Shown: one piece after another, positions 5,422-33,865 of the stretch
How positions within the stretch are numbered: the first letter of the stretch is position 1
Layout: each line of letters opens with the position of its first letter
NCBI GenBank assembly: GCA_003022255.1
Contig: PXPA01000011.1
Location: forward strand, 1 to 41,337
DNA: 41,337 nt
Source of the DNA: Parcubacteria group bacterium SW_6_46_9
Lineage (GTDB): Bacteria > Patescibacteriota > Minisyncoccia > Phycocordibacterales > SW-6-46-9
Direction: 5' to 3'
The notes under the pieces: model-generated
Told to the model about the DNA's origin: nothing
The model's input: the letters and a program-made list of their open reading frames with translations, nothing else
The model's database searches: none
Program-made: the position numbers and the translations under genes

Positions 5422-5988
5422 TTAGGAACGGTCCTTGTCGATATGAGCGCCACTGCCCTGCTCAACCATATTCGGGTGCGCAGCCGGCCCGCGATACTCA
5501 GCGTCACCGAATCCTAAGATCGGCCAAAACACAAACGGCAACACCATCAAGCCAAACGTAAAGCCCATGCCTTTACCGAAAGACCGGGCAACGTCATACA
5601 GCATAACCACGCTCGCCAGCATAATAAGCTGCCAACACGCCACAATTAGTAGCCCAACAAGTATCGCCACGATCCCGCCACCAGCGAGCGCCGAAGTTAG
5701 CTCAATAGAGGATCCGCCAGCACCGGCTGCGTCGTAACCACCAGGCCCCTGCGCATTTGCCGCCCCGCCAAGCAGTAGCGAGAAAAGCCAGGGAAGCAGC
5801 GGCAAAATAAATGCCATCACCCACCAACCAGAGTGCCCACCAATTCGCAACATTATGGCGCTATTGTAGAACGGAATAATCGCTTTCCATCCACTTTCGC
5901 CGGCTTTCGTAAACACCTTCCAGACTCCGGCAACAGAGACAATCAAAACAGCGAAAATGATTCCCACCAAAGAAATGAAAACTTCCAT
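5422..5988 (-). CDS. small polytopic membrane protein (DUF5684-like)
   Basis: 188 aa. The N-terminal WKVFTKAGESGWKAIIPFYNSAIMLRIGGHSGWW resembles the DUF5684 signature as I recall it. It has several TM segments and a Gly/Ala-rich loop. Confidence 0.6.
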   Translation of the reverse strand: MEVFISLVGIIFAVLIVSVAGVWKVFTKAGESGWKAIIPFYNSAIMLRIGGHSGWWVMAFILPLLPWLFSLLLGGAANAQGPGGYDAAGAGGSSIELTSALAGGGIVAILVGLLIVACWQLIMLASVVMLYDVARSFGKGMGFTFGLMVLPFVFWPILGFGDAEYRGPAAHPNMVEQGSGAHIDKDRS

Positions 5989-6167
5989 ACTAACTAATAT
6001 AAGTTAAGAATAATACGTGAACCTCTACATGTAGTATACAGCACAAACTGACAGCATCCGTCTTTTCGGCCCCCTGCTTTCAGCGAGGGTTTAAAAATGA
6101 CAGAAATCCGCGTGGTCCTGCGTTAAAACTAAAAACAGAGGCTTAAATCCGTCTGTACACAACTAAC

Positions 6168-6202
6168 AAGAAAATGGAGGGGTTGGCGTATCCACCCCCT
6201 CC
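6168..6202 (-). terminator. rho-independent terminator of pncB
   Basis: On the minus strand the hairpin ggaggggg-tggatacgccaa-cccctcc is followed by ATTTTCTT, 13 nt after the pncB stop. Confidence 0.65.
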
Positions 6203-20973: not shown

Positions 20974-21639
20974 TCATAGCTGCATATCCACTTTAGCTAA
21001 TGCTTCTTTGATTTTCAACCGCTTTCGTGAAAGGTACGTAATATCATTAGAGTGATACATATTTCTTAACAAATTCATAGACTCATCTTTTGCGTATTTA
21101 AGTTTATAAACCTTACTATTTTTCGATTTACAAATATGTCCACGAATATCAATAAATTTGTTTATATTCTCTCGTAGCCAGTCGATATGGTCTTCACTGG
21201 CTGAATTAAATACGGTATAAAACATATAACTAGATTCCCAGCGCTTATCCCAAAAGCTGTAAAAACAACCATCCCCATCAAAAAGACCGCGTAAAAAATC
21301 AAGAAAATACTTATCGGGAATATCGATTGACCCAATTGTTTTGGACTTGGCAGTTGTCAGCCCAATGTCTTCTAAAAAAGAATAAAACAGCACATCACCA
21401 AACTGAACTCTTCCACATCTTCCACCCCTGCCGTTCTCTTTTTCAGATATTTTTACATGCTCTATATCTAAACATCTCACAAAGTTTTCTAGCTGCTCTT
21501 CATCTTGAGAAGTAAAATCGAGATGCCTGCCATTACTTGAAAGACATCCATCGGCTGTAAAAAGCCCGACTGCATATGCAAAATCAGGAGACCAGGTAAT
21601 ATCAACTACTCCTTTGGGTTTTGGGCCAGGTTTTGCCAC
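20974..21639 (-). CDS. free-standing double-motif LAGLIDADG homing endonuclease
   Basis: There are two LAGLIDADG-type motifs, FAYAVGLFTADGCL and FLRGLFDGDGCF, about 100 aa apart. The stop codon is 8 nt upstream of the tRNA-Leu 5' end on the same strand. Confidence 0.85.
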   Translation of the reverse strand: MAKPGPKPKGVVDITWSPDFAYAVGLFTADGCLSSNGRHLDFTSQDEEQLENFVRCLDIEHVKISEKENGRGGRCGRVQFGDVLFYSFLEDIGLTTAKSKTIGSIDIPDKYFLDFLRGLFDGDGCFYSFWDKRWESSYMFYTVFNSASEDHIDWLRENINKFIDIRGHICKSKNSKVYKLKYAKDESMNLLRNMYHSNDITYLSRKRLKIKEALAKVDMQL

Positions 21640-23305: not shown

Positions 23306-23908
23306 ATGAGTTATAAAACTATCAGTTTAACAGTAGCCGTAATTGTAGTTGCTACAGGAGGCTTTCTGCTGGTAAACCAAAACCGGCCAACAACAAAAGA
23401 CAACAACAGCACAAGCACAGCCACTCAAAGCCAAAACTGCGATACCTATACCGCACAACAAGGTTCAGAGTTCCGACCAGGTTATTTACCACAAATAGAC
23501 AATCGTCAGGCACTCAAACAAGCAATGATTGACTACCATGGCGAGGACATGGAAGGTAAAGATGGCGAATTAGCTGCTGTCGGCTTCAATCTGGCTCTCC
23601 TATATCACGAATATCAAGCCCATCAGTGTAATGGCCCAAACACTGAGTTTGCGTCTGACCAATCTCGACTTGATAACATTGGCGGATCAATAACCATAGA
23701 AGGCTCTGCGCGAGACGGAATGGGAGGAAAGCTTGCTGAAAGACTGCGCAATCTTGGGGCAGATCGTGTCGCTGGATCAAAAAATGCAGTTAGCGGCATA
23801 ATTCCAATCGAGAAAATACCGCAGGTAGCAAAAATTAACGCTGCAAGCTCATTATGGTCTTCACAAGGAACCACCGATTCCGGATCGGCAGGTACAATAA
23901 CTGGTTGA
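23306..23908 (+). CDS. membrane-anchored hypothetical protein
   Basis: 200 aa, with an N-terminal TM segment ISLTVAVIVVATGGFLLV. I recognise no other motif. Confidence 0.5.
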   Translation: MSYKTISLTVAVIVVATGGFLLVNQNRPTTKDNNSTSTATQSQNCDTYTAQQGSEFRPGYLPQIDNRQALKQAMIDYHGEDMEGKDGELAAVGFNLALLYHEYQAHQCNGPNTEFASDQSRLDNIGGSITIEGSARDGMGGKLAERLRNLGADRVAGSKNAVSGIIPIEKIPQVAKINAASSLWSSQGTTDSGSAGTITG

Positions 23909-23948
23909 TTGATTTTTATCAAATAAATAGTAGAATAAGAATGTATTT

Positions 23949-24052
23949 GGGCGGTTAGCTCACCCCAAGAGTACTTCTTCGTCAGTAAACTGACTCAGGG
24001 CGCAGCTGGCAAGTTTGCCAGCTTCGCTAACCACTTTTTAAAATTTAACTAT
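23949..24052 (+). repeat. exact copy of tRNA-Val nt 1-14 (23949-23962), followed by the repeat-family core (b-module, 23961-24006) and a 9-bp hairpin
   Basis: gggcggttagctca is identical to 24053-24066. The core is caccccaagagtacttcttcgtcagtaaactgactcagggcgcagc. The hairpin agctggcaa/ttgccagct lies at 24004-24023. Confidence 0.7.
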
Positions 24053-24125
24053 GGGCGGTTAGCTCAGCTGGTAGAGCGTCTCGTTTACACCGAGAATGTC
24101 GTAGGTTCAAGTCCTACACCGCCCA
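24053..24125 (+). tRNA. tRNA-Val (anticodon TAC)
   Basis: The sequence is gggcggttagctcagctggtagagcgtctcgtttacaccgagaatgtcgtaggttcaagtcctacaccgccca. The anticodon stem is tctcg/cgaga and the loop is ttTACac. Confidence 0.92.
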
Positions 24126-24311
24126 CAACGAACAAAGTGAAAAGTGAGTTGTGGCGGTGAGCAAGCAACTTTCTTTGCTTGCATTCGGGCTTGAAAGCCG
24201 CAACTATATCTGAGTTTGCCAAGCTCTGCTTGGCGGGGCGTAGATAGTGAGGCTCGGCGCGAAGGCAAAACTCGTCAGAGTTTTGACCGAAGAGAAGTCC
24301 TACACCGCCCA
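24126..24311 (+). repeat. hairpin-rich tRNA-Val trailer (e- and f-modules), ending in an exact 20-nt copy of the tRNA-Val 3' end plus flank
   Basis: 24295-24314 aagtcctacaccgcccacaa equals 24109-24128. The trailer start caacgaacaa...gagttgtg parallels the tRNA-Arg trailer caacgagcaa...gagttgtg. atatctgagttt at 24206 is shared with 25594. Confidence 0.7.
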
Positions 24312-24321
24312 CAAATTCAAA

Positions 24322-24348
24322 AACAGCGTCCATTCGGGCGCTGTTTTT
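24322..24348 (+). terminator. rho-independent terminator after the tRNA-Val unit
   Basis: The stem is aacagcg/cgctgtt (7 bp) with a 10-nt loop, followed by TTTTT. Confidence 0.7.
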
Positions 24349-24359
24349 ATATTAGATGT

Positions 24360-24601
24360 TTAGATGTGTAGGACTCGAACATGGAAAGGGGGCGGGAAAA
24401 CTCCAGTTTTCCCGTGTTGGAAAGCAGTCCGCCGCAGGCGGACGTTGAGAACCGTGGGATAAAACAGAACCTTCTTTCTGTTATATCCGATTCTGCTCTT
24501 GGCGGAAATTTCGAATGTCGAATGTAATGAGACAAGAAATAGGAGGCCTCGAAGAGGTTAAAACGCAGGAGCGAAGCGACGAGTGGTGAGGGTCCTACAG
24601 C
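24360..24601 (-). repeat. inverted member of the repeat family, bounded by inverted tgtaggac / gtcctaca ends
   Basis: The left end is tgtgtaggactcgaac, the reverse complement of a T-arm/acceptor-like gttcgagtcctacaca. The right end is gggtcctacagcacaca. 24565-24595 gcaggagcgaagcgacgagtggtgagggtcc matches the type-B core seen at 33455-33493 and 36830-36870. Confidence 0.5.
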
Positions 24602-24696
24602 ACACACAAATTTTGTTTAAACAATCAAAGAAAAAGGCTCTGCCCGAGAGAGCGGACAGAGCCTGTAGTCGTCCCTGAGTGACAGAGACCGAGAGG

Positions 24697-25323
24697 TCAA
24701 AATGTTCGGGCTAACCCGAACTGGAAAAAGAATTCTTCCTGAGTGATCTCGTACTGTGTTCCGACAATCAGCCCGGTTTTGTTGTTGATTGAATGAGTGT
24801 ATTTTACACCCACCTGCTTAATGATGTAATCAACAGGCTTAAAGTCAACCAACGCAGCACTGAGCGTGAACGGACCTGGAGTGTAAAAAGCCACTACACT
24901 CCGAGCAAAAAACTCCGGACTCATTTCAAATCCAGATTCTTGTGTACCGGCTGACCATTCATGCCAGAGCCATACAGTTAAATTGTCGATCGGGTGGAGG
25001 TTAAGCCGAACCCCGCTCCACGGCACACCGGAAAATTGCCCAACGTTACCCGATATTGTCATCCAGCTTGTTACCGGGTATGTGCGGACGAAGTAAGCTC
25101 GCTCAGAATTGCCTTGAAGCGCGAACCAGTTGCCGGGCTGCTCTTTTTGGTACGTCCAGCGCACATCCAGCCCAGACGTGATAACTCCCGTACCGAAAGT
25201 GACTACTCGAGAACTCAATTCAAACCCACCAACCTCCTCCGGAGCTACCTGGGCAATGGTGTTACCAGGAAAGCTGAGGAAAGCGAGTGCGAGAAAGCAG
25301 AACAAAAAGCAACGAGGATTCAT
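24697..25323 (-). CDS. secreted protein with beta-strand periodicity and a C-terminal Phe (outer-membrane beta-barrel-like)
   Basis: Likely start is ATG at 25323. The signal peptide is MNPRCFLFCFLALAFLSFPGNTIAQ. The mature ~185 aa show alternating hydrophobic patterns and end in FFFQFGLARTF. Confidence 0.55.
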   Translation of the reverse strand: MNPRCFLFCFLALAFLSFPGNTIAQVAPEEVGGFELSSRVVTFGTGVITSGLDVRWTYQKEQPGNWFALQGNSERAYFVRTYPVTSWMTISGNVGQFSGVPWSGVRLNLHPIDNLTVWLWHEWSAGTQESGFEMSPEFFARSVVAFYTPGPFTLSAALVDFKPVDYIIKQVGVKYTHSINNKTGLIVGTQYEITQEEFFFQFGLARTF

Positions 25324-25534
25324 TGGAGGGTGCTCAGTTGTGAAGGAAGATAACGAACCCTGAACTATGTAAATATTAATACATATAAGCATAATAGTCA
25401 AACTAAACACGTGTCGCTTTCCGCTGGTTTTACATTACTCTCAACCACTAAAATCGCTCCGATGCAGCACTACATTGGCTAAATCTAGTTAGAATGCTTA
25501 TGCCAAGCGTGCTTTAACCAGATGAGCGTCTCTT

Positions 25535-25694
25535 GGGGGTAGAACTTCACTCTAAGAGTATCTCCTCGTCAGCAAGCTGACTCACAGTACAGCATATCTG
25601 AGTTTCAGCTTTGCTGAAGCCGAGGACGACGGGGTGCAGGCTACGAAATTTCTGCATCGAAAGCATTATTTGCAGTCGAATCCTACACCGCCCA
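25535..25694 (+). repeat. contiguous 160-nt copy of the repeat family (degenerate 5' tRNA-like piece, b-core, f-module), ending in a 15/16 copy of the tRNA-Val 3' end
   Basis: The start is gggggtagaacttca. The core is cactctaagagtatctcctcgtcagcaagctgactcacagtacagc. The middle is atatctgagtttcagctttgctgaa..., and the end is tcgaatcctacaccgccca. Just upstream, gagcgtctc equals tRNA-Val nt 21-29. Confidence 0.65.
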
Positions 25695-25787
25695 CCAATT
25701 AATACTTAAGCATTTTTGTTTGATTATATTAGCGTAATATTACATAATATTTTTGTGTCTGTTCCTTTCATAAGAACTTATTCTGAT

Positions 25788-32931: not shown

Positions 32932-33080
32932 GATTGTTTTGTTTGCTTGACTTCTTGTAACTTTTCTAAGTAAGCTTTGGTATATTCAGCAACACCATTA
33001 AGATGCCGCATTAAGGCAAGCTCTTCTTCCTGTGTTGATTCGTCTTTATTTATTTTTGTTATAAGCTCATCAATGTCCAT
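32928..33080 (-). CDS. 50-aa hypothetical protein, translationally coupled to 32404-32931
   Basis: Own translation gives MDIDELITKINKDESTQEEELALMRHLNGVAEYTKAYLEKLQEVKQTKQS. The stop TGA overlaps the next ATG. It is below the ORF-track length cut-off. Confidence 0.4.
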   Translation of the reverse strand: MDIDELITKINKDESTQEEELALMRHLNGVAEYTKAYLEKLQEVKQTKQS

Positions 33081-33184
33081 ATATTGTTATTATACTCATT
33101 ACACAAAAATAAAGCAAAATAAAAATAACTGCGGATCTCGGTTTCTACCGAATACACTTTCCGGATAAAGACTCTCTGCAACCA

Positions 33185-33604
33185 ACTACCTAACGGGAAC
33201 TGCTTTCGAGTCGGGCCTCGATACCGTCGCCCTGTCCTTCTACAAGCTCATGACAGACTTGGATATACTGTGCTGTGAGTCAGATTACTAACGAGCAAAT
33301 ACTCTTGGGGTGCACCCTTCGATTCCTGACGAATATCGCAGTAAATACTAGCAGGAATCCCTTACGGTAAATCGGCTAACGCCGATTTCCTCCAGACCGA
33401 GCCTCGATATCCTCGCCTTGTGCTCACCAGGCTCGCACAAACCCGGATATATCTGTGCTGGGAGCGAAGTGACCGAATACTCGTGGGGTGCGGCTTTCGA
33501 TTCCTAACGAACATGCAAAACTGTACTAGTAGGAATCCTCTTCGATTCCTACACGAACGCACCAAACGGTGCGTTCTCGGAGTCACAACTCGCGTTGCTC
33601 GTTG
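33185..33604 (-). repeat. tRNA-Arg trailer (e-module) followed by two tandem copies of the repeat family
   Basis: The cores are 33270-33314 (gtgctgtgagtcagattactaacgagcaaatactcttggggtgca) and 33455-33493 (gtgctgggagcgaagtgaccgaatactcgtggggtgcgg). Two 9-bp hairpins are gaacgcacc/ggtgcgttc and gtaggaatc/gattcctac. The orientation is co-directional with tRNA-Arg. Confidence 0.65.
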
Positions 33605-33676
33605 TGCCTCCGGTAGGAATCGAACCCACATCTACGGGTTAGAAACCCGGTGCTCTATCCGTTGAGCTACGGAGGC
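33605..33676 (-). tRNA. tRNA-Arg (anticodon TCT)
   Basis: The reverse complement is gcctccgtagctcaacggatagagcaccgggtttctaacccgtagatgtgggttcgattcctaccggaggca. The anticodon loop is ttTCTaa. Confidence 0.9.
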
Positions 33677-33865
33677 AGTACTTCGCCCCTCACCCAGACT
33701 GTAATCTAACATACAAAATTTTGAATTCGTAACAAGACAACGATAACAATCTGGGTGAGGGGCTGCTTTCCTTCACCAAACCACGGAAAGCAAAACAATA
33801 GCGCACAACCTACTTGCCCTCCCGTAGCTTGAATAAAATGAAAGCGAAGGTGGGCTACGGAGGCA
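33677..33865 (-). repeat. tRNA-Arg leader: exact copy of tRNA-Arg nt 1-11 plus its 1-nt 5' flank (33854-33865), its complementary partner, and a 13-bp long-range hairpin
   Basis: gctacggaggca at 33854-33865 equals 33666-33677. The partner gccctcccgtagc lies at 33816-33828. The hairpin cccctcacccaga (33686-33698) pairs with tctgggtgagggg (33750-33762). Confidence 0.6.

Follow-up and report, generated by a model that had tools for sequence, protein, structure and literature searches.

The 3' flank of the tRNA-Val(TAC) gene studied here, which belongs to a member of the Paceibacterota (CPR; genome of 626 kb, GC 0.463, 61% complete), is probably a stack of small, non-coding and strongly folded tRNA-tail elements belonging to two families related by their design. 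These units apparently represent an undescribed kind of element; a literature search retrieved no description of such tRNA-tail elements. The window, i.e. the whole stretch of DNA that was analysed, spans 41,337 nucleotides, and the features of the locus are the following:

23949-24009, + strand: split 5' (head) copy of tRNA-Val, nt 1-14 at 23949-23962 and nt 15-19 at 24005-24009
23963-24004, + strand: 42-nt mini-element splitting the head copy, CCCCAAGAGTA...CTCAGGGCGCA, from the mini-element family listing
24015-24044, + strand: putative sigma-70-like promoter TTGCCA-18-TAAAAT, consensus scan only
24053-24126, + strand: tRNA-Val(TAC), ARAGORN and Rfam (72.8 bits), CCA not encoded
24127-24314, + strand: E1, intact family-1 tRNA-tail element (model R1 129.7 bits, covariation, exact 20-nt repeat)
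24315-24605, + strand: E2, family-2 tRNA-tail element (homologous units of equal layout, antisense arm)
24635-24664, - strand: intrinsic terminator of the ORF, 12-bp stem and T-run, conserved in L014
24697-25323, - strand: ORF of 208 aa with a signal peptide, a predicted 12-stranded beta-barrel and a C-terminal Phe (AlphaFold2, Foldseek)
25373-25401, - strand: promoter-like site TTGACT-17-TAATAT upstream of the ORF, consensus scan only
25538-25697, + strand: E3, decayed family-1 unit (sequence likeness to a tRNA-Arg unit, R1 11.8 bits, tail copy)

As originally predicted, the 3' end of tRNA-Val is found three times in direct orientation. Indeed, a repeat finder gives an exact repeat of the tail (24109-24128 and 24295-24314, 20/20) and a third copy at 25678-25697 (17/20). 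With up to 3 mismatches, the 17-mer AGTCCTACACCGCCCAC has 3 occurrences in the window versus 0.04 expected, and none of 100 shuffled windows contains 3 copies of it. Furthermore, a decayed fourth tail, GGTCCTACAGCACACACA, closes E2 at 24588-24605 and the tail is also present in antisense at 24359-24379; past 25697, no tail copy of tRNA-Val was found in the window. The identity of the tails to tRNA-Val (20/20 for E1, 15/20 for E2, 17/20 for E3) declines with distance from the gene in part only. The items previously noticed between the second and third copies, namely a terminator, an inverted-repeat element, one ORF and a 160-nt repeat, were all recovered.

E1 comprises, from 5' to 3', a conserved spacer, the antisense acceptor arm GTGGCGGTG (24151-24159), a hairpin H1 (24161-24182), the 5' strand GGGCTT of the closing stem (24187-24192), a three-helix core and the 20-nt tail (24295-24314). 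It is closed by an acceptor-like stem, and its fold z-score is -4.93. E2 includes a terminator-like hairpin with a T-run (24319-24349), followed by a part flanked by the arms (24359-24605), which holds the core GGAAAGCAG-hairpin-CGTTGAGAACC (24419-24453), a nested insert of about 100 nt and then the decayed tail; the sequence directly 3' of this unit (24606) starts with AAATTTTG. Family 2 has five copies in this genome, and homologues with the layout of E2 are found behind tRNA-Val in the genome G005 and behind tRNA-Asp in G001, a genome of the same genus as the host. E3 is devoid of spacer, antisense acceptor arm and H1. It retains a T-stem-like GGTAGAAC, a nested mini-element (25550-25591), ATATCTGAGTTT with a hairpin, a degraded last helix and a tail (25678-25697) that shows 1 mismatch in 17 and is directly followed by CCA. 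As model R1 recognises it weakly (11.8 bits), its assignment to family 1 is based on direct sequence similarity to a unit located behind tRNA-Arg at 33257-33312, with which its 56-nt core shares 80% identity.

The same design recurs throughout the genome. Family 1 amounts to 29 copies (model R1), at least 26 of which lie directly behind the 3' end of a tRNA or tmRNA gene or behind another unit. Units of equal layout follow tRNA-Met, Asp, Ser, Pro, Gln, Thr, Arg and Val(GAC), and also tRNA-Ala, Lys, Ile, Cys, Glu, Leu, Gly and the tmRNA; one core family serves more than 20 different tRNAs and the tmRNA. Each unit starts immediately 3' of the tRNA or of the preceding unit. It contains one or two arms that are antisense to the T-arm and to the acceptor 3' strand, then a conserved multi-helix core and finally a sense copy of the last 17-20 nt of the tRNA, from T-loop to discriminator; many family-1 units close with the tail of their own neighbouring tRNA or tmRNA gene. 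The pairing between arm and tail closes the unit as a tRNA-like acceptor/T minihelix in which the core replaces the T-loop. The units (about 185-290 nt) encode no genes, are all co-oriented with the tRNA and placed between it and a terminator, and are found stacked, decayed and interrupted by nested mini-elements. The Pro, Gln, Thr and tmRNA units have near-identical cores, yet the arms on either side are tRNA-specific; what looks like a recent spread of the units could result from gene conversion between cores.

The original prediction regarded the repeats as att-like and proposed two successive insertions at tRNA-Val. T-loop-type integrases leave direct repeats extending from the T-loop to the 3' end, and an insert is flanked here by copies of the tRNA 3' segment in direct orientation (20/20 and 17/20). 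Nevertheless, a classical tRNA-gene island, in which these repeats would be attL/attR scars of serial tyrosine-integrase elements, one of them having brought the ORF and the integrase having since been lost, seems improbable. The tails are the 3' ends of gene-less structured units found behind more than 20 tRNAs and the tmRNA within one genome, a range that no integrase is known to cover with one design, and they are therefore not att scars of integrases. Furthermore, no integrase ORF was found within 24127-25697, and no dedicated integrase was detected elsewhere: PF00589 gives a single Xer-like match per genome, whether element-rich or element-free, this genome being 61% complete and the element-rich G004 95% complete in two contigs. 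Like tRNA/tmRNA genomic islands, prophages and the CIMEs that derive from them by loss of the integrase, the units are located at the 3' end of the gene, display repeats from T-loop to 3' end, leave the gene intact and can be stacked. However, they differ from all of these by the lack of integrase and att core, by a size of only 185-290 nt, by an antisense tail copy, by a covarying RNA-like core and by the use of more than 20 tails by one design. Thus, the successive character of the insertions stands, with at least three of them downstream and one upstream of tRNA-Val, but their attribution to integrase islands does not. More largely, tRNA-linked direct repeats in CPR genomes cannot serve as evidence for such islands.

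Local duplication followed by decay, in which tandem tRNA-Val genes would have left the tails and the head copy behind and the other repeats would be unrelated later insertions, would be very surprising. It could account for the 19-nt 5' copy located upstream of tRNA-Val (offset -104) and for two tRNA-like pieces ahead of E3, GAGCGTCTC and GGTAGAAC-TTCA. The first of these was previously reported as tRNA-Val debris at 25526-25534; this 9-mer does exist, but its true position is 25524-25532, and with another occurrence at 2316 and 0.28 expected per window, it is at chance level and its presence there may be fortuitous. Against this explanation, the association of tail, antisense copy and homologous core recurs behind more than 20 other genes, and H1 and the spacer are homologous among units of different tRNAs, which indicates that they do not derive from decayed tRNA bodies. 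The upstream head copy and its mini-element are missing in the near relative L014; the putative sigma-70-like promoter lies between the head copy and tRNA-Val and ends 8 nt before the tRNA.

The comparison of family-1 copies supports a conserved fold of the units. Both sides of the helices have changed in a compensatory manner at 33 of the 46 pairs, and standard pairs occupy 88.8% of the cells, versus 67% after shuffling and 35-50% when partners are slid, the copies being paralogues from one genome whose relatedness inflates the shuffle control but not the slide control. In this family, invariant U.G pairs occur at two positions (12/12 and 11/12) and G.U is commoner than A.C, which points to a fold belonging to the tRNA-sense strand. 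The small family-2 alignment (7 units) contains 9 consensus pairs, of which 4 are compensatory. Searches of Rfam over 23850-25750 and 33050-33800 yielded only tRNAs at the gathering score and nothing credible at E <= 10, and the models of HDV-like, hammerhead and twister ribozymes, tRNA-like families, ROOL and GOLLD gave no match.

The units could also be host-useful RNA modules, i.e. co-transcribed tRNA-like RNAs kept for their function, transmitted mostly vertically and often lost. Their role could be to signal processing by RNase P, RNase Z or the CCA-adding enzyme, to work as terminators or insulators, or to provide a stable ncRNA with a factor-binding core. This hypothesis, which is compatible with mobility, is considered rather unlikely, although several features argue for it: the constant orientation of the units between tRNA and terminator, the sense-strand fold with its invariant U.G pairs, the closing helix that imitates an acceptor/T minihelix, and the presence of CCA after 9 of 46 tails (own count on the printed sequences) versus about 6% expected given the first C, in a genome where 25 of the 26 tRNA genes do not encode CCA. 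Furthermore, tRNA-like processing signals do exist, as exemplified by plant-mitochondrial t-elements and by mascRNA. Like t-elements, the mascRNA of MALAT1 and the HDV-like theta ribozymes found 3' of phage tRNAs (PMC10879173), the units would be structured RNAs transcribed together with a tRNA or located immediately behind it, with an acceptor/T-arm mimic or a processing role. However, they differ from all of these by the absence of any match to the HDV or other ribozyme models of Rfam, by the copying of the neighbouring tRNA's own sequence and by a spacer of about 25 nt between tRNA and unit.

The distribution of the units among relatives argues against such a host function. Within the order, R1 has matches in 31 of the 41 genomes (0-27 copies per genome, none in two genomes of the same family); among other members of the phylum, 14 out of 300 sampled genomes contain matches, and some distant scores equal local ones. 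The region is not invariant, in keeping with the original prediction: tRNA-Val is bare on both sides in the congeneric G001 and bare in G002, and has only an upstream element in G003, whereas it is associated with a homologue of E2 in G005, another type of unit in G004 and L013, and two family-1 units in L014. In the same way, tRNA-Asp is followed by family 1 in this genome versus family 2 in G001. The differences in occupancy of tRNA-Val among close relatives imply that the elements come and go. Together with this range of copy numbers, the replacement of one family by another at the same tRNA in congeners, the stacking and decay of the units and their interruption by nested mini-elements are typical of selfish DNA rather than of a host-useful RNA. 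No clean pair of empty and filled sites with an identical right flank was found when tRNA-Met, tRNA-Asp and tRNA-Val of G001 were compared, the first two being associated with other elements and the right flank of the bare tRNA-Val being a different gene; the target duplication is therefore inferred rather than demonstrated.

The ORF located between E2 and E3 probably belongs, as an accessory gene, to the variable region linked to this tRNA and lies outside E1, E2 and E3. Several data could suggest that it is the cargo of an island: it is rare in the phylum (0/250 sampled genomes), it is missing from tRNA-Val in G001-G005, and tail-like copies are found on either side of it in three lineages (the window, L014 and L013). 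However, the composition of 24606-25525, a comparison advocated by the original prediction, reveals nothing foreign (GC 0.471 versus 0.463 for the genome, 3-mer distance at the 17th percentile), and no mobility gene adjoins the ORF. The ORF holds the same position in two related contigs. Moreover, the window and L014 share orthologous versions of the tail next to its terminator and of the flank of this tail, but have different units between tail and tRNA, which indicates that the ORF was beside tRNA-Val before E1 and E2. The idea that the second insertion delivered this gene is therefore not supported for these two elements. In L013, the tRNA-Val flank contains a small membrane-protein gene.

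If the flank of tRNA-Val is indeed a stack of tRNA-tail elements, a unit would insert at the T-loop/3' end of the tRNA and duplicate its tail, the newest unit landing beside the tRNA and displacing older ones outward. The order of arrival would then be E3, the ORF segment, E2 and E1, the exact repeats of E1 designating it as the youngest. This rule of the oldest unit being the farthest is not strict, since E3 lacks its left half and yet has a better preserved tail than E2. As the units encode nothing, they are presumably mobilised in trans. The preferred guess is that the antisense arms guide the recognition of the tRNA tail, either on single-stranded DNA or on co-transcribed RNA.

REP/REPIN sequences (RAYT) and IS200/IS605 elements are likewise small, gene-less, hairpin-rich and strand-specific, and are mobilised in trans. 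The Y1 HUH transposases of these systems find their cleavage sites by base pairing with an internal guide; in IS608, a guide located inside the element reads the target through DNA-DNA pairing. By contrast, the guide-like arms found here have 6-10 nt each instead of 4 nt, and the target is a tRNA tail, which is probably duplicated. The resident IS200-like copy has hairpins that bear no relation to the units. Y1 transposases (PF01797) have four matches in this genome, one of which adjoins a tRNA-Arg stack; resident copies include C25:7186-7551 and C43:6547-6906, the latter with an in-frame TAG. Across 17 genomes, they occur in 5 of the 7 that are element-rich and in 5 of the 10 that are element-free, and thus show no clear correlation with the elements. 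Two other candidates were rejected. An element of the IS200/IS605-TnpB guide-RNA type was discarded because TnpB (PF07282) was found in none of 17 genomes. A retroelement, SINE-like or using target-primed reverse transcription, was discarded because reverse transcriptase is lacking in element-rich genomes: PF00078 was not found in this genome (G000) or in G001, G004, G026, G035 and G039, and was found in the element-free G002, G003 and G012.

A bolder scheme, which is speculative and judged doubtful, is that the units are programmable nucleic-acid-guided insertion modules whose antisense arms designate the terminal ~20 nt of whichever tRNA or tmRNA gene as landing site, and that the same machinery occasionally captures genes. 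The flank of tRNA-Val would then be a cassette array, the porin-like gene being one tail-delimited cassette and the membrane-protein gene of L013 another, and the CCA found after tails would reflect a mature-tRNA-like RNA stage. If the units are mobile, they constitute a type of bacterial element that is absent from the literature searched, gene-less, RNA-like and addressed to tRNA/tmRNA tails by antisense arms. The genomes in which they abound are the smallest known among bacteria, where pressure is assumed to bear on each base, and the mechanism of their movement could reveal a new chemistry of guided insertion or a new RNA-processing signal.

The product of the ORF has no sequence match in Pfam or PDB, and the 34 members of its family also lack any Pfam match. 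Its AlphaFold2 model (34-sequence alignment, pLDDT 92.9) displays 12 strands, and its best Foldseek matches, 4pr7, 4fqe and 2wjr (TM 0.52-0.65, KdgM and NanC ranking at the top), suggest a porin-like protein with a KdgM/NanC fold. KdgM and NanC are 12-stranded monomeric outer-membrane porins, which the predicted protein resembles by its signal peptide, its 12 antiparallel strands, its length of about 200 aa and its C-terminal aromatic residue; it differs from them by an identity of 11-13%, by the absence of a Pfam match and by its Paceibacterota (CPR) host. Descriptions are available for few CPR organisms, and these are reported to be monoderm (PMC8871954). A 12-stranded barrel in such a lineage, if the model is correct, would imply either an outer-membrane-like layer or a pore exported by this organism into the membrane of a host cell. 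Scans of JGI metagenomes found neither the terminator nor relatives of the ORF; a scan of GTDB contigs with a narrow ORF alignment retrieved a single homologue, in G005.

The 3′ end of tRNA-Val(TAC) had been predicted to recur in direct orientation downstream of its gene, and it does. Indeed, AAGTCCTACACCGCCCACAA, the last 20 nt of this tRNA including two trailer bases, recurs exactly at 24295-24314 and as a 17/20 copy at 25678-25697, and a 17-mer of this tail gives 3 matches with at most three mismatches, against 0.04 expected. All the items described between the second and third copies (terminator, repeats and ORF) were also found. The supposed tRNA-Val debris GAGCGTCTC lies at 25524-25532 and its frequency is at chance level. 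As no tail copy was found past 25697, the tRNA-linked region corresponds to 24127-25697. The main features are:

23949-24009, upstream of the tRNA: 19-nt copy of the tRNA-Val 5′ end, split by a 42-nt mini-element
24053-24126: tRNA-Val(TAC)
24315-24605: E2, unit of a second family following the same logic as the first
24359-24379: antisense tail copy
24588-24605: fourth tail copy, decayed
24697-25323, minus strand: porin-like ORF of 208 aa, with a signal peptide and a C-terminal Phe
25538-25697: E3, decayed family-1 unit, 56 nt of which are 80% like a tRNA-Arg unit

Inspection of the sequences around each of the 26 tRNA genes and the tmRNA gene in this CPR/Parcubacteria-type genome (626 kb, 61% complete) revealed a single unit design 3′ of most of them, and 14 genes have a copy of their tail 117-250 nt downstream. 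The unit starts with a conserved spacer (AAyTTGArCrmAGTGAAAA-like), followed by a short arm that resembles the tRNA 5′ acceptor strand and is thus antisense to the tRNA 3′ strand, by a hairpin (H1), by a strand pairing with the T-loop and the 3′ half of the T-stem, and by GAARG. Then come a conserved three-helix core, whose last helix has a CGTCAG loop, and a copy of the adjoining tRNA's own segment from T-loop to discriminator (the tail). E1 (24127-24314), immediately 3′ of tRNA-Val, is a textbook member of this design, hereafter family 1. Fourteen units of the related genome G004 have the same tRNA-specific arms and tails. The cores of the Pro, Gln, Thr and tmRNA units are near-identical, yet their tRNA-specific arms are entirely different, which requires that target sequence be captured during insertion or that cores undergo gene conversion with one another.

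At 33567-33544 (minus strand), GTAGGAATC-GAAGAG-GATTCCTAC follows a normal spacer and H1 hairpin and resembles a family-1 unit in which a hexaloop stands on the closing stem in place of the ~110-nt core. This "pad without core" is either a unit that lost its core by deletion or an empty scaffold.

The family-1 fold is real. Twelve units, all from this genome, align well, and RNAalifold finds 39 pairs in this alignment, 32 of them with compensatory changes. When the closing stem is included, 88.8% of the cells are paired, versus 67% after shuffling and 35-50% with slid partners, and both sides have changed in 33 of 46 pairs. Two of the U.G pairs never vary, and G.U is commoner than A.C; therefore, it is the tRNA-sense strand that folds, whether as top-strand ssDNA or as an RNA transcribed together with the tRNA. 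Taken by itself, E1, closed by GUGGCGGUG/CACCGCC-CAC, reaches -72.7 kcal/mol (z-score -4.93). The units match no Rfam family.

The second family, of which the genome carries five copies, consists of a hairpin resembling a terminator, an uninterrupted antisense tail arm, the core GGAAAGCAG-hairpin-CGTTGARAACC and, at its end, a tail. In E2, a further insert of ~100 nt is nested. Homologues with an identical layout lie behind tRNA-Val in G005, with an exact tail copy, and behind tRNA-Asp in G001, two related genomes; the alignment of this family is small and its covariation limited. As for E3, it is devoid of spacer, acceptor arm and H1, harbours a nested mini-element and scores weakly with the family-1 model.

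This model detects 29 copies in the genome, at least 26 of which come straight after another unit or the 3′ end of a tRNA or tmRNA. Units are stacked and are co-oriented with the tRNA. Matches were found in 31 of the 41 genomes of the order (0-27 copies per genome; 17 in G004, zero in two genomes of the same family) and in 14 of 300 other genomes sampled evenly across the phylum. Some genomes of other classes give scores of 100-119 bits, as high as those of the local copies.

The units turn over between close relatives, where the surroundings of tRNA-Val(TAC) are as follows (L013, a Logan contig, and L014 being related contigs that carry the ORF):

G001, same genus: bare on both sides, with a different gene next
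G002: bare
G003: upstream head-copy element only
G005: terminator and E2 homologue after the tRNA
G004 and L013: a different unit type
L014: tRNA-Val, two family-1 units, the ORF (91% protein identity), then a tail-like copy

When the window is aligned with L014, identity is high through the ORF, the units between tail and tRNA differ, and homology restarts within the tail adjoining the ORF terminator (GTCCTACAGCACACACAAATTTTG in the window, GTCCTACAGCGCCCACAAATTTTA in L014). In the simplest reading, the own 3′ end of tRNA-Val would have adjoined the ORF terminator in the common ancestor; E2 then E1 would have inserted later at the tRNA in the lineage of the window, and two family-1 units in that of L014, every insertion duplicating the tail and pushing the older copy outward. 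This comparison supports successive insertion and places E1 and E2 later than the ORF. The original prediction, two successive tRNA-Val insertions between att-like repeats, the second delivering a beta-barrel cargo, thus holds for the serial insertions, given L014 and the states of tRNA-Val in relatives, but not for integrase att sites; nor did E1 or E2 deliver the ORF, which predates both.

In L013, a small gene that has a terminator of its own (5700-6180) separates the porin gene from the tRNA-Val units; this block ends in the tail-like TTCACACCACACCGCCCAC, and in L014 it is found beyond the porin gene.

The structure model of the ORF, built from an alignment of 34 sequences from a small family (37 cluster representatives), has a pLDDT of 92.9 and 12 antiparallel strands. 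Its best Foldseek matches in the PDB are the 12-stranded porins KdgM and NanC; sequence searches of Pfam and PDB with the ORF gave no match. The family profile gave no match in a sample of 250 other genomes from across the phylum, and among 40 relatives the only homologue, in G005, is 30% identical and away from tRNAs. In L014 and L013, the ORF occupies the same place and orientation beside tRNA-Val and is bracketed by tail-like sequences. Foreign composition was looked for in the ORF segment, which proved ordinary for the genome. Given its rarity, kept place and ordinary composition, the ORF is a rare accessory gene of a tRNA-Val-linked variable region; its arrival as cargo is possible. The few CPR organisms described to date have been reported to be monoderm (PMC8871954). 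A confidently modelled 12-stranded porin-type barrel with a signal peptide is here encoded by a Paceibacterota genome. The protein could be an exported pore aimed at a host membrane or the sign of an unusual envelope.

The units would enter at the T-loop/3′ end, duplicating the tail, and would be mobilised in trans; the antisense arms might guide insertion, a guess whose nearest precedent is guide-sequence pairing in IS200/IS605. Among candidate enzymes, RT is encoded by some element-free genomes but is lacking in element-rich ones, almost all genomes checked have a single Xer-like tyrosine recombinase, and TnpB is absent from the genomes checked. Y1 HUH transposase genes occur in this genome; their presence (5/7 element-rich versus 5/10 element-free genomes) does not track the units. 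An IS200-like element (contig C43, 6480-7010), whose Y1 transposase gene has an in-frame TAG and whose end hairpins are CCCAGGCTTTAGCCTGGG and CCCGGGCTTTAGCCCGGG, immediately follows the unit stack behind tRNA-Arg(GCG).

In their location and repeats, the units are like tRNA-gene islands, but they have neither the integrase nor the single target of these. REPIN and IS200-type elements are similarly small and also have strand-specific hairpins, but no link between the units and a transposase was shown. With tRNA-like processing signals and with the theta ribozymes of phages (PMC10879173), the resemblance is one of position only. No description of such tRNA-tail elements was found in the literature, and the underlying family appears to be undescribed.

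CCA, often CCAC, follows 9 of 46 tails (hand count in this genome, G004 and other relatives), versus ~6% expected given the first C, e.g. at 25695-25697 and in the C52 Pro, C53 Ile and C43 Lys units. The matching tRNA genes are devoid of CCA and read C-A-A or C-A-G there. These CCA ends may reflect an RNA stage resembling mature tRNA, or selection for a 3′ end like that of a tRNA.

Other repeats occur nearby. The mini-element (consensus CCCCAAGAGTAyTTCnTCG...CTCAGGGCRCA) is always preceded by ...(G/T)CA and has ...GCA at its end; this (G/T)CA...GCA context is shared by about 14 of the 17 motif matches in the genome. It is nested in tRNA-tail units, in the upstream tRNA-Val 5′ copy and in other repeats. 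Furthermore, eight tRNA genes have their first 12-14 nt repeated at a distance of 104-413 nt upstream. The positions of both kinds of repeat are:

23963-24004; 25550-25591; 33488-33453, 33310-33270 and 36863-36830 (minus strand): mini-elements, 34-42 nt
23949-24052: head-repeat region upstream of tRNA-Val
33677-33865, minus strand: head-repeat region upstream of tRNA-Arg
other contigs: upstream head repeats of six other tRNAs

The head repeats are the mirror image of the tails and suggest a second class of elements, entering at the D-loop. A promoter-like site (24015-24044) lies between the head copy and tRNA-Val. Finally, a free-standing LAGLIDADG-type ORF with two LAGLIDADG-like motifs (20974-21639, minus strand) ends 8 nt before tRNA-Leu.
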